Source: an uncultured bacterium (GTDB lineage: Bacteria; CAZSTA01). Taken from it: a stretch of 32,073 nucleotides of DNA. The notes beneath the pieces are model-generated. The model was not told the DNA's origin. It saw only the letters and a list, made by a program, of their open reading frames with translations, and ran no database searches. Made by a program: the position numbers and the translations under genes. The stretch is from contig CAZSTA010000017.1 of the NCBI GenBank assembly GCA_964609495.1, positions 1 to 32,073 on the forward strand. The letters are read 5' to 3'. Below, piece after piece: positions 1,867 to 31,735 of this stretch. The stretch's first letter is position 1. Every line of letters starts with the position of its first letter.

Positions 1867-2670
1867 ATGCCCGCGATAAAGTGTCCTCAGTGTGGCGGCG
1901 AGGTTGATTTGAAGGAGAGGGTATATTTCCTCGCCTGCCCTTACTGTCATTCGGCGCTCTATCTCGATAGAGCGCGAAGCGTTCTTCATTATATTCTGGA
2001 GGCAACGATCGATCCTATAGTGGCGGAGCATAACCTGAGGAGGTGGATGGGGGGAGCAGAGATGAGGAGGGGATTGGAGGAACTAGCAGTGATAGAATCC
2101 GTTGAGTTCTTCTACTTCCCGATGTGGTACTTTCATATCAAGCGAACCCAGCAAGCGATCGCGACCTACGTTGAGCCAGCGGCACCAACTTCCCTCTCGA
2201 CGATAAAGGAGTTTAAACCTCCGGGGGGATCGCTTCGCTTCTATGAACCTACTCTGGCACCTCCAGAGAAGATGATAGAACCTTCTATTCCCTATAAAAC
2301 CGCATTGGGATGGTTACAACAGCGGATTCGCTATCTATCATCACCTGCCGCCGGCGCTAAGAGAGGAAAAGGTAAGGAAGAGGTATCATTAACCGAGGTA
2401 TCGTTAGTTCATATTCCTTGGTATATCTTTCGTTACTCCTTTAAAGATGAGACTTACCTTGCCGCAGTCGAGGGGACCACTGGCAAGGTCTTTGCCAACG
2501 TTTTTCCCTCTAAGTCAGAAATACCCTTCGATCTAGTGACGATAGTGGCTATTGTGATCCTCTTCTGCGAGGGGATGTTGATCGATGGTTTTCTGCCGAG
2601 GTTGGTGGTTATGACTTCTACTGCTCTTCCCCTATCGCTCATAGCTTATTTTGTAGCTAGGGAGTTTTGA
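1867..2670 (+). CDS. Zinc-ribbon membrane protein (YdjG-like)
   Basis: N-terminal CPQCGG...CPYCHS; YFPMW and HIPWY motifs; VEGTTGKV; two C-terminal hydrophobic helices; starts 1 nt after the SPFH gene. Confidence 0.7.
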   Translation: MPAIKCPQCGGEVDLKERVYFLACPYCHSALYLDRARSVLHYILEATIDPIVAEHNLRRWMGGAEMRRGLEELAVIESVEFFYFPMWYFHIKRTQQAIATYVEPAAPTSLSTIKEFKPPGGSLRFYEPTLAPPEKMIEPSIPYKTALGWLQQRIRYLSSPAAGAKRGKGKEEVSLTEVSLVHIPWYIFRYSFKDETYLAAVEGTTGKVFANVFPSKSEIPFDLVTIVAIVILFCEGMLIDGFLPRLVVMTSTALPLSLIAYFVAREF

Positions 2671-2826
2671 TTGTTTTATCCTTGATCTCGATTTCAGCCG
2701 AAATGGGATTACTTCTGGGCGAACGTAAGGGACATAAAGTGAAAATAAGGTTTTTCGGCGGAGGCGAATAAATAACCGACTGATCCCTATCGGCAAGCTC
2801 TCTTTTACGAAGTAAAGACTTTTTGA

Positions 2827-2850
2827 TCCCCGATTCTATATGCTTCCAGT
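2827..2850. repeat. Solo copy of the right terminal inverted repeat of the 31342-31513 MITE
   Basis: TCCCCGATTCTATATGCTTCCAGT is identical (24/24) to 31492-31515. Confidence 0.75.
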
Positions 2851-2863
2851 TCATCTTAATAAC

Positions 2864-2892
2864 TTGAAAAATTCGTTAATTTACGTTATAAT
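2864..2892 (+). promoter_or_regulatory. Sigma70/SigA-type promoter upstream of the omegaRNA element and lptC
   Basis: TTGAAA (2864-2869), 17 bp spacer, TATAAT (2887-2892). Confidence 0.7.
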
Positions 2893-2910
2893 TTGGGTAG
2901 AGTTTATATA

Positions 2911-2939
2911 GCGACCCTGAACTCGGGGTCGTTTATTTT
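2911..2939 (+). terminator. Intrinsic terminator-like hairpin just downstream of the promoter
   Basis: GCGACCCTGA / TCGGGGTCGT stem followed by a T-rich tract (TTATTTT). Confidence 0.55.
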
Positions 2940-3200
2940 ACATTAATGTCAATGACCCACGACTGAAGTTCGTGGGCTTGTGGTGGAAACTACAAGCCTG
3001 ATTGACCAGCCTAAGTCCAGCAAGGACTACGTTAGTTAGATCAAGACACCCTAGAATGCTCCTCCAGTTCTAGGCCCTGTCGCTATTAGTTAAAAGTTCT
3101 GAGGTCAGGAACGGTGCTATTAGCCTAAAAAGTTTAGCTAACCTTGGCGAGGAGGGTTAACCGAGAGGTTACGTTACTAGCCCCTTACGGGGATCTGGGA
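2932..3200 (+). ncRNA. IscB omegaRNA / HEARO-like RNA (scaffold from 2948; putative guide is the 5' flank)
   Basis: Ordered HEARO-type motifs: GTCAAT...ATTGACCAGCCTAAG...ACTACGTT...GACACC...GAATGCTCCTCCAGTTC...CTGTCG...TAAAAG...ACGGTG...TAACCTTGGCGAGGAG. CTCCTC/GAGGAG are complementary (pseudoknot candidate). Boundaries approximate. Confidence 0.8.
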
Positions 3201-3281
3201 GAAAATGTGAGGATATTGATAGATTTAATATCCTCACATTCCTCCCACGACTAAAGATCGTGGGCTTCCTGTGAAGAGATC
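2948..3281 (+). mobile_element. Non-autonomous IS200/IS605 (IscB-family) derivative lacking iscB and tnpA
   Basis: Matching subterminal hairpins CCCACGA-CTGAAGT-TCGTGGG (2956-2976) and CCCACGA-CTAAAGA-TCGTGGG (3244-3264). Begins GTCAA and ends ATTCCTCCC...GGGCTTCCTG. No ORF between the ends. Confidence 0.8.
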
Positions 3282-3294
3282 GTGATTTAAACAA

Positions 3295-3873
3295 ATGATT
3301 AAGGGTATATTAATAGCAGTAAGTATAATCGCTTTAATCGGCGGTTTGATCTATCTCTTGAACTTGCCAGAAAAAGAGGCAAATATAGCTGGTGATAACA
3401 GCTCCGAAAAGGAGATACTCGGTGATTCTGTGGCGGAGAATAAACCCAATATGGTTTCGGAGAATGTGGTAATATTTGATGAGACTAGCGAAGGAAAGTG
3501 GAGATTAGAGGCGAAAACTATGTCGGAATTTGAAGGGGAGAAGACGAGAATATTCAAAGGGGTAAAGATACTCTACAACGAGAGAAATGGAACTGACATA
3601 ACTTTTCAGGCTGATGAAGCTAGATTGATAGCTCTCAAAGATGAGAGATGGAACGTTCAGTTTCAGGGCAATAGCCAAGTTAGATCTAGTGATGGAATCG
3701 AGATTTCGGCTGATAAGCTATATTGGTCAACTCAAGATAAGATGATAAGAGGCGAGGGGAATGCCAGGCTAATTAGAGGAAAAACGGTGATCAGCGGAGA
3801 TAGTCTAGAGGCTAAGGAAGATCTGAGTTATGCTAAATTCAAGGGTAATAGCAAGGGAGAATTAGAATTTTAG
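3295..3873 (+). CDS. lptC: LPS export ABC transporter periplasmic protein LptC
   Basis: Single N-terminal TM helix, beta-jellyroll-like sequence (KWRLEAK, ISADKLYW), and position before lptA-lptB. Confidence 0.75.
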   Translation: MIKGILIAVSIIALIGGLIYLLNLPEKEANIAGDNSSEKEILGDSVAENKPNMVSENVVIFDETSEGKWRLEAKTMSEFEGEKTRIFKGVKILYNERNGTDITFQADEARLIALKDERWNVQFQGNSQVRSSDGIEISADKLYWSTQDKMIRGEGNARLIRGKTVISGDSLEAKEDLSYAKFKGNSKGELEF

Positions 3874-3894
3874 TATCGTTAGGAGGCGAAGAAT

Positions 3895-4566
3895 TTGATG
3901 CATCGTTGCTCAAGATGGATTGCAGTTTTAGTAGGAGTTCTATTGTTATATTCCAATATCGCTATAGCACAGGATAATGAGAAGACTGAAGCTAATAGGG
4001 TGGGATTTAAGGCTGATGAGATCGATCTTGATCTAGCGGGTGGAGGAGTCATATTAACTGGTAATGTGGAGATCACTATGAAGGATTTAACGCTCACCTC
4101 TCAGAGTGCCCAGATCAATCAAGAGAAAGGTTATGCGAAAGCTACCGGTAATGCCAGGGTTGTGACGCAAGGATCGACCCTAACTAGTGATACGGTGGAG
4201 ATCGATACGAAAGCCAATACTACGATCGCTTCTGGTAATGCTCGTTTAGAGAGAGGGGGGACGATAATAACTGCGGATAAAGTGGAGATAGAGGAAGGCG
4301 GATTCTCCGCCTCCGGGAATGTGAATTTTCAACATCCCAAAGCTCAAGCGACTTGTCAATCTGCTACCCTCTCAGAGGTAGAAGGCGGAGAAAATAAGAT
4401 AGAGCTTCAAGGGAATGTAAATGTCAGTATGGATACCAGCAACTTCAAAGGTGAGATCATCGAGATGTATATAAAGGGAGAGGAGATATCTAAGGTCAGG
4501 ATTCTAAAGGGGAGTGGCAGTATTATATGGGGAGGCGAAGAGGAAGAGACCGAGGCGAAACCCTAA
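3895..4566 (+). CDS. lptA: LptA/OstA-family periplasmic protein
   Basis: Signal peptide plus repeated LTGNVEI / ATGNARV / ASGNARL / ITADKV OstA beta-jellyroll motifs. True start may be ATG 3898. Confidence 0.8.
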   Translation: MMHRCSRWIAVLVGVLLLYSNIAIAQDNEKTEANRVGFKADEIDLDLAGGGVILTGNVEITMKDLTLTSQSAQINQEKGYAKATGNARVVTQGSTLTSDTVEIDTKANTTIASGNARLERGGTIITADKVEIEEGGFSASGNVNFQHPKAQATCQSATLSEVEGGENKIELQGNVNVSMDTSNFKGEIIEMYIKGEEISKVRILKGSGSIIWGGEEEETEAKP

Positions 4567-4608: not shown

Positions 4609-5397
4609 ATGGAAACTCTAGCCGCAGAAAAACTCGTTAAGATATATAAGAAGAGAAAGGTTGTAAATGAGGTAAGCTTTGAGATCAAACAGGGTGAAAT
4701 CGCAGGACTTCTGGGGCCTAATGGAGCAGGAAAGACTACCACCTTCTATATGGTAGTTGGTTTAGTGAGACCTAATTCGGGAAGGGTTATCTTCTCCGGG
4801 GAGGATATAACCAACGAGCCTATGCATATCAGGGCCAGGAGAGGTATAGGCTATCTTGCTCAAGAGCCTTCGATCTTTCGTAAATTGACGGTGGAGGAAA
4901 ATATACTAGCTATATTAGAGGCGATAGACTATCCTAAGAATCTGCGTAGAGATAAGGTGGATGAACTATTGGAGGAGTTGAATATCGCGCACCTAGCGAA
5001 GAATATGGGATATACCCTATCGGGAGGAGAGAGGAGAAGGGTTGAGATAAGTCGAGCTCTATCCACCTCCCCCTATTTCTTGTTATTAGATGAGCCCTTT
5101 ACAGGAGTCGATCCCTTAGCTGTCTCCGATATTCAGAAGATAGTCTATCAATTGAAGGATAAAGGGCTAGGAGTGCTGATAACCGATCATAGCGTGCGAG
5201 AAACTTTAGCTATAACCGATAGAACTTATCTGATACACAACGGTCGAGTTCTGATGTCAGGCACCTCCCAAGAGATAGCTGATAGCGAAATAGCAAAGAA
5301 GTTCTATTTAGGGGAGAACTTCCGCTGGGAAAAGGAATTTTACGATCAGTTGGAGAAGAGAAGGGAAGAACTTGAGAGAGAGGAGGACAAATTATAA
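4609..5397 (+). CDS. lptB: LPS export ABC transporter ATP-binding protein LptB
   Basis: GLLGPNGAGKTTTFYMVVGL, GYLAQEPSIFRKLTVEEN, LSGGERRRVEI, LLDEPFTGVDP, ITDH. Confidence 0.97.
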   Translation: METLAAEKLVKIYKKRKVVNEVSFEIKQGEIAGLLGPNGAGKTTTFYMVVGLVRPNSGRVIFSGEDITNEPMHIRARRGIGYLAQEPSIFRKLTVEENILAILEAIDYPKNLRRDKVDELLEELNIAHLAKNMGYTLSGGERRRVEISRALSTSPYFLLLDEPFTGVDPLAVSDIQKIVYQLKDKGLGVLITDHSVRETLAITDRTYLIHNGRVLMSGTSQEIADSEIAKKFYLGENFRWEKEFYDQLEKRREELEREEDKL

Positions 5398-28567: not shown

Positions 28568-28694
28568 AATCCTCATCTTGACATTTCAAAAACATGCAAC
28601 TTTTTCGGTGATTTGTATTATTATATATAAGTGGAGGCTACTATCTATAATCTGTATTTGGCCACTTGGATTATAGTTAGCCAATAGTGAAACC

Positions 28695-28724
28695 AGCCAC
28701 TAATGTTTATTAGTGGCTATTTTT
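28695..28724 (+). terminator. Intrinsic terminator between asd and the Tat/radical SAM cassette
   Basis: AGCCACTAAT-GTTT-ATTAGTGGCT followed by ATTTTT. Confidence 0.75.
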
Positions 28725-31341: not shown

Positions 31342-31513
31342 TGGATGCATATAAAATTAGGGACTTGGAAAACATCGGATATCATCCCCAGCTCCTCCTC
31401 TTAAAGGAGAGGAGAAATTGAAATGTAGATGAAGAGAGATAACCCTTCCTTTCCTCTGAGAAGAGGAAGGCAAGGGAAGTAAGATATCAGGTCCCCGATT
31501 CTATATGCTTCCA
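31342..31513. mobile_element. 172 bp MITE with 23 bp terminal inverted repeats and a 7 bp target-site duplication
   Basis: Left TGGATGCATATAAAATTAGGGAC vs right GTCCCCGATTCTATATGCTTCCA (19/23 inverted match); flanked by GTGCTGA at 31335-31341 and 31514-31520; two internal hairpins. Confidence 0.8.
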
Positions 31514-31529
31514 GTGCTGATTGAAAAAT

Positions 31530-31558
31530 TTGAAAAATTTTTGAATCTGTGATATAAT
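31530..31558 (+). promoter_or_regulatory. Putative sigma70 promoter
   Basis: TTGAAA, 17 bp spacer, TGnTATAAT. Confidence 0.65.
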
Positions 31559-31735
31559 TAAGTAACAAATCAAACTAGTAATAAATTGAATGTAAGATAT
31601 ATACTATAAATTATCAAGATAGATTTGACTAAAGATTAGACTTTTTCTCAGAGAATAGATGAGTTGTCGGTATCTTCGATAAGTATAGTAATATCAACAA
31701 CCTTAATATTACCTTTGGTCGAAGGGGGTATTTTT

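Follow-up and report, generated by a model that had tools for sequence, protein, structure and literature searches.

The closest described relatives of the locus analysed here are the IscB omegaRNAs of the HEARO family (Rfam RF02033), the omegaRNA-only elements known as PATEs or standalone omegaRNAs, the IS608 transposon of Helicobacter pylori, and OgeuIscB, an IscB protein with available structures (7utn, 7xht). According to the HEARO passages of the Meers preprint (10.1101/2023.03.14.532601), the transposon RE forms the border of the HEARO region, and the family has extra 3′ hairpins beyond the Rfam HEARO model. The passage of the same preprint on PATEs reports that those of Geobacillus stearothermophilus often encode omegaRNAs acting in trans, and describes these as needing TnpB in trans (10.1101/2023.03.14.532601). 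That standalone omegaRNAs function with IscB is stated in a passage of Hirano et al. (PMC9581776), which cites Altae-Tran 2021, and the transposon-adjacent motif (TAM) of OgeuIscB is given in a passage of PMC12660989 as NWRRNA. As for IS608, in the descriptions that we draw on the cleavage tetranucleotide stands 5′ of the left hairpin foot at a distance of 19 nt and 3′ of the right hairpin foot at a distance of 10 nt; four bases at the 5′ foot of the hairpin recognise it, guide bases 1 and 2 pairing with target bases 2 and 1 (TTAC with AAAG, TCAA with GAAT). A second left-end hairpin is described there for IS608, ISDra2 and IS605.

We analysed a 32,073-nucleotide stretch of DNA from an uncultured bacterium (hereafter the window), one contig (C17) of an assembly of 349 contigs and 3.78 Mb (GCA_964609495.1). 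Positions 2948–3281 (+ strand) of the window hold a 334-bp non-autonomous mini-element of the IS200/IS605 family, of the IscB type and PATE-like, an identification that we regard as virtually certain. OmegaRNA-only elements, whether PATE-like or standalone, have already been described, and the window element is a well-preserved further example: it has both palindromes and no protein gene, would need a nuclease from elsewhere, and has sisters in its own genome whose ends match. It differs from the PATEs in being of the IscB type, where the PATE passage speaks of TnpB, in its position in the 5′ leader of the lpt operon, and in that no active TnpA was found in this genome. For the locus as a whole, mechanism included, the best explanation in our judgement is an IscB mini-element formed by internal deletion, and we consider this account probable, though well short of established.

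The RNA gene is recognised over its entire length. Rfam model RF02033 matches positions 2948–3161 on the + strand, from model position 1 to 211 of 211, with 153.5 bits (gathering score 83 bits) and an E-value of 1.1e-32 for the window, which bears out the first-pass annotation's reading of the region as a HEARO omegaRNA. HEARO was also the sole above-threshold match in a permissive Rfam rescan of 2600–3400; matches of two plant miRNA families and a Burkholderia sRNA to the hairpins were rejected as chance, with 17–23 bits against cut-offs of 43–90. As in the family at large, the helices of the model are present, the first stem-loop coincides with a transposon end, and two extra hairpins (about 3156–3172 and 3181–3192) follow 3′ of the Rfam model, giving an omegaRNA scaffold of 2948–3193 (+). 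These 3′ hairpins are common to the sister copy on contig C343, and the last of them covaries among the genome's copies.

The assembly contains 12 full and two weak HEARO copies, and among the 12, compensatory double changes are found in 32 of the 63 predicted pairs. Positions 2946–3204 are 89% identical to the C343 copy and 90% identical to the copy at the end of contig C165. Between the window and C343 we counted 29 differences in 254 columns, with 8 among 156 paired columns as against 21 among 98 unpaired columns (Fisher p 1.6e-4), a count made on the structure predicted from these two sequences themselves, which favours a low number of paired changes. At all seven affected pairs, both sequences keep standard pairing, and RNA pairing is conserved in the window copy. 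Its HEARO score is the second best of the 12 full copies and exceeds those of the copies beside complete iscB genes (124.8 and 135.8 bits).

This preservation bears directly on the chief alternative, which holds that the locus is an inert fossil, a fixed and immobile remnant whose RNA, if made, would do no more than lengthen the lptC leader by 334 nt, having neither a partner protein nor an effect. We think such a remnant possible but somewhat doubtful, since its substitutions avoid paired positions with every pair kept, and since it outscores copies that still adjoin a complete iscB. What does speak for it at this level is copy number and divergence: the mini-element is single-copy and differs by about 10% from its full-length relatives, and therefore it is not a recent or proliferating derivative.

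The window copy departs from the usual HEARO arrangement in having no iscB after it. The gene lies directly downstream of the omegaRNA on the same strand at three other copies (contigs C31, C77 and C3) and is absent here; this missing neighbour is what makes the copy 'standalone', and it is no argument against the RNA family. Neither the RRXRR profile nor tblastn with a complete IscB from the same genome found iscB on contig C17, both matching other contigs only. On the + strand, the list of open reading frames contains none of at least 40 aa between 2671 and 3294, and the sole − strand frame in the element region is a mechanical 41-aa TTG frame (3169–3294). Two CCCACGA/TCGTGGG hairpins without an iscB ORF, as the region had been described beforehand, are thus what is found, at 2956–2976 and 3244–3264.

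The mini-element retains the whole omegaRNA gene, the right end and the left end, complete with its two hairpins, and only the protein has been lost; judged from its sequence, it arose from an iscB transposon by internal deletion. What is left of the iscB ORF is a ribosome site and an ATG followed by an immediate stop (GGGAG 3197–3201, ATG 3205–3207, TGA 3208–3210). This remnant is contained in a long, perfect second hairpin (3194–3250; fold −31.7 kcal/mol, z −8.05) that adjoins the left-end palindrome, and on contigs C76 and C275 the final codons of iscB contain a weaker homologue of this hairpin. A metagenome contig following C343-type sequence runs past the position corresponding to 3192 into a ribosome site and ATG, an iscB-like start.

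The boundaries of the mini-element were set by comparing copies within the genome. The left ends, as read on the + strand, number 13, namely the full HEARO copies plus a left end at the edge of C165; because 13 of 13 start with GTCAA(C/T) after unrelated DNA, the left boundary lies at 2948 and positions 2932–2947 are flank. These 16 nt, directly 5′ of the first scaffold base, are the putative omegaRNA guide (+ strand), as the first-pass annotation had proposed. At the opposite end, the three right ends of the subfamily (C17, C76 and C275, 3 of 3) agree through ...GAGATCGTGA and are unrelated beyond, and because they diverge right after GTGA, the shared sequence stops at 3285. Comparing copies alone cannot tell the last base of an element from a conserved target motif; because the comparison and the IS608 pairing rule agree, we assign 2948–3281 to the element and 3282–3285 to the motif. 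The same annotation had named GTGA at 3282–3285 as the probable TAM, and the tetranucleotide is indeed both the last 4 nt common to the three right ends and a fit to the IS608 rule.

The element has subterminal palindromes at both ends, in the same orientation on one strand, and no terminal inverted repeats. For TnpA, the 'top' strand corresponds to the − strand of the window. In the TnpA sense, the left-end palindrome occupies 3244–3264 (CCCACGA 3244–3250, TCGTGGG 3258–3264); adjoining its foot is the guide tetranucleotide GAAG (3265–3268, − strand), which by the IS608 rule pairs with TCAC, the − strand form of the transposon-adjacent motif GTGA (3282–3285, + strand), 17 nt from the hairpin foot. 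The right-end palindrome, which is the first stem-loop of the omegaRNA, occupies 2956–2976 (CCCACGA 2956–2962, TCGTGGG 2970–2976). Read on the − strand, this end consists of the hairpin plus TCATTGAC, and CAAG at the hairpin's 5′ foot (the complement of 2977–2980) pairs with the cleavage tetranucleotide TGAC (2948–2951, − strand), 8 nt from the foot. Both GAAG/TCAC and CAAG/TGAC pair at positions 1–2, 2–1 and 4–4, with A opposite A at position 3, like IS608.

The likeness to IS608 thus extends to a subterminal hairpin at each end, the same pairing positions, similar spacings (19 and 10 nt in IS608, 17 and 8 nt in the window element) and a second left-end hairpin. The two differ in their tetranucleotides (TTAC/TCAA in IS608, TCAC/TGAC in the window element). 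They also differ in gene content: the accessory gene of IS608 is tnpB, whereas the parent of the window element has iscB on the opposite strand, and the window element itself is without tnpA. The end geometry of the mini-element is intact, and the survival of both ends, of both guide/cleavage pairings and of the second left-end hairpin again argues against an inert remnant.

The 12 HEARO copies fall into at least three subfamilies that differ in their hairpins and target tetranucleotides. Besides the subfamily of the window there is one that combines GAAA with ATGA (4 copies) and another that combines AAAA with ATAA (4 copies); because the three differ in both together, guide and cleavage tetranucleotides covary. 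The boundary at 4 nt is not as sharp for the ATGA and ATAA subfamilies, as 1–2 bases past the tetranucleotide are also common to 4 of 4 copies. The guide register of these two subfamilies was chosen partly by the analyst, with an extra C–G pair counted in the stem, and is strict in six of the eight copies (C41 has A at that position, and C1 has no base).

Each of GTGA, ATGA and ATAA agrees with the OgeuIscB TAM, NWRRNA, in its first four positions. The IscB protein encoded on C76 aligns with OgeuIscB (7utn, 7xht) across RuvC-II, HNH and RuvC-III with an E-value of 2.5e-20. The relationship is distant, and for the window element it is the motif GTGA that is the predicted TAM. Four further elements of about 46–50 bp were observed in the genome (C69:~5746, C63:~7375, C73:~10275 and C41:~67), each with the 9-nt IscB-element terminus (GTCAAC...), one CCCTAC hairpin, a 17–20-nt left-end spacer and ATGA or ATAA. 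In these single-hairpin derivatives, a single palindrome represents the two ends.

Elements without a nuclease gene are common in this genome: 8 of the 12 full HEARO copies have no neighbouring iscB, three have one, and one is cut by a contig end. The relatives of the window element are split between contigs, with cognate left ends (+ strand sense) and RNA on C343 and C165, and cognate right ends and iscB on C76 and C275. The window's right end (3221–3285) is 92–95% identical to the iscB 3′ ends at C76:925–990 and C275:2652–2588, which belong to 329-aa open frames. These were assigned to IscB by the NF040563 equivalog model (281 bits, cut-off 175) and by RRXRR and HNH domains. In both cognate frames the contig breaks off at the same residue, leaving the first ~107 RRXRR profile positions unassembled. 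Cognate ends and iscB are therefore present elsewhere in the genome, and an IscB that could serve the window's RNA in trans would come from these sister elements; that both frames are cut by contig ends counts on the side of an inert remnant. In the full-length copies, the iscB frame extends across the left-end hairpin as far as the TGA within GTGA, where it stops (C76:987–989, C275:2590–2588). Because the C76 and C275 frames end only at this TGA (corresponding to window 3283–3285), the target site supplies the iscB stop codon.

The transposase is less well represented. The sole Y1_Tnp match in the assembly is a frame of 80 aa whose N-terminus is truncated and which another IscB element interrupts, and no intact tnpA is present in the 349 contigs, although a copy could be unassembled. 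Thus, of the relatives with matching ends that the first-pass annotation had suggested seeking in the genome, those bearing iscB do exist (C76 and C275, cut by contig ends), and for tnpA there is a pseudogene only. The absence of an intact tnpA from the assembly is a further point in favour of an immobile remnant. At C343:1227–1691 (L001), a full-length sister element lies inside the truncated Y1 tnpA pseudogene, after the codons for ...LWSKGYY, and because it is inserted there, the guide of the C343 omegaRNA is tnpA coding sequence. To our reading of the sequence, a ParA-like gene lies upstream on this short contig. As a check of the TAM boundary, the C343 tnpA was rejoined to the right-end flanks of the other copies, an approach that we abandoned. 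With the C76 flank a stop follows after three codons, the C275 flank to our eye resembles the C-terminal portion of some unrelated gene rather than a continuation of tnpA, and the contig ends could not be paired.

The mini-element is inserted beside a GTGA located 9 nt ahead of the start of lptC, and is oriented as lptC. The genes downstream on the + strand are lptC (3295–3873; Pfam LptC, 2.1e-09), an lptA-like gene (3895–4566; LptD_N/OstA, 3.9e-14) and an lptB-like ABC ATPase gene (4609–5397; ABC_tran, 5.9e-36). Upstream of the element there is a sigma-70-type promoter-like site, TTGAAA-17-TATAAT (2864–2892, + strand), with 11 of 12 consensus matches, which is presumed to be the lptC promoter; a scan of 2500–3500 found no second such site. 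With no other promoter-like site from 2893 up to lptC, every lptC transcript that starts upstream must include the RNA, and we infer that the element is obligatorily transcribed with lptC. A second LptC-family frame on contig C87 weakens this argument.

Between the promoter and the scaffold stands a strong terminator-like leader hairpin of 10 pairs, followed by TTTATTTT (2910–2940, + strand; terminator scan and fold). Its stem-loop (2910–2933) folds with −16.9 kcal/mol and z −4.65, none of 200 shuffles being as stable, and the presumed guide has the U-run as its first half. This hairpin is another feature that one may cite for an inert remnant, as it lies upstream of the scaffold. Without the element, only about 21 nt would separate the U-run from the lptC start, too short a distance for another promoter; by this reasoning, transcripts reaching lptC from upstream must always have read through the hairpin, and would now include guide and scaffold as well.

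The promoter itself is associated with a very abundant genome repeat (core CCCGATTCTATATGC, then WTCC), the 3′ end of which keeps a fixed distance to promoters downstream of it; the window has one copy at 2805–2848 and a weaker one at 31492–31559. Genome-wide, the repeat has 78 sites with up to two mismatches, 42 of them with a promoter-like site of at least 9/12 within 40 nt. The −35 hexamer starts 15–17 nt past the repeat end in 35 of these 42 sites (16 nt in 21), and the lptC promoter, at 16 nt, is among these repeat-linked promoters. Longer repeat copies have a G/C-rich palindromic part upstream. The repeat could be a promoter-targeting mini-element or a site shared by a regulator. Elsewhere in the window, a c-di-GMP-II riboswitch aptamer is found at 28624–28707 (+ strand), with a full-length Rfam match of 63.4 bits against a cut-off of 53.5.

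From these features, we infer how a mini-element derived from an IscB transposon may operate at this locus, including transcription of the omegaRNA, loading of IscB, cleavage and homing. Transcripts from 2864–2892 that read through the leader hairpin would carry the 16-nt flank 2932–2947 fused to the scaffold, and IscB from the full-length sister elements (C76, C275) would bind this omegaRNA in trans. The complex would then cut chromosome copies from which the element has been excised, in which the flank is followed by GTGA, and repair of the cut chromosome from a sister copy would restore the element. The occupied allele should be spared, since at its own locus the guide adjoins GTCA instead of GTGA: GTCA is the + strand sequence of 2948–2951, the position where the IscB TAM would be expected. 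The guide 16-mer is unique in the genome, and 0 of 60 other sites with up to three mismatches are followed by GTGA. Movement of the mini-element would in addition require a Y1 transposase (TnpA) in trans. We put the chances that the omegaRNA is still usable by an IscB in trans at about even.

The position of the element admits a different reading, in which it has been domesticated as a leader and the structured RNA tunes lptCAB expression, either alone or with an IscB that binds the RNA or its own flank DNA. Its orientation is that of lptC, 9 nt before the start codon and inside the only visible transcription path, and the guide matches DNA between promoter and gene. We nevertheless consider a host function of this kind very improbable: it lacks comparative support, as no relatives with the locus were found; seven other omegaRNA-only copies lie in unrelated contexts; and the transposon ends that it has kept indicate a selfish element rather than one of the host. 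We also considered whether IscB elements generally lie behind promoters, and rejected this, as an 11/12 match within 150 nt upstream is found in only 2 of 13 copies (the window and C31); this scarcity of strong promoters likewise counts against a leader adopted by the host.

A special form of regulation would be an RNA-guided roadblock, for which the element would have been captured into the control region of this LPS-transport operon. The omegaRNA would be obligatorily co-transcribed with lptCAB, and IscB loaded with it would bind its own flank between promoter and lptC, next to GTCA, without cutting, thereby coupling lpt expression to the nuclease of the transposon. RNA-guided transcription factors derived from TnpB exist, and an IscB roadblock, if true, would be their IscB counterpart; we hold it to be improbable in the extreme.

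The locus was also compared with other genomes and with metagenome contigs. In a DNA search of window positions 2300–3900 against 30 other genomes, all of other families in the same domain, no match was found outside the genome itself. A protein search with LptC returned one metagenome contig, 90% identical and starting inside lptC, and no genome contigs, and the best matches to LptB were only 62% identical and came from several phyla, with no near relative among them. Contigs bridging the junctions of the element with its surroundings were recovered from three runs (X3, 2869–3053; X1, 3244–3637; X4, 3253–3403). No joint that skips the element occurs in the contigs of four runs, a result that says nothing about the absence of an empty allele. 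That these contigs contain no empty allele is the last of the points in favour of a fixed, inert remnant.

The run X2, from marine sediment, contains a relative about 95% identical. Its lptC contig ends 4 nt before the position corresponding to 3290, just after GTGA, and another X2 contig departs from the window sequence at 2911. Either this relative also carries a repeat here or the site is polymorphic, and the contigs fit both equally.

Taking the evidence together, we retain the internal-deletion IscB mini-element as our reading of this locus. It leaves the current understanding of OMEGA systems unchanged. It does provide a natural example of an IscB transposon decaying to an RNA-only passenger that has kept everything needed in cis. 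The placement in the lpt leader is a curiosity, and its effect on expression is testable. The three subfamilies that reside together in this genome offer a test bed for the question of whether each IscB's preferred TAM follows the target chosen by the transposase.
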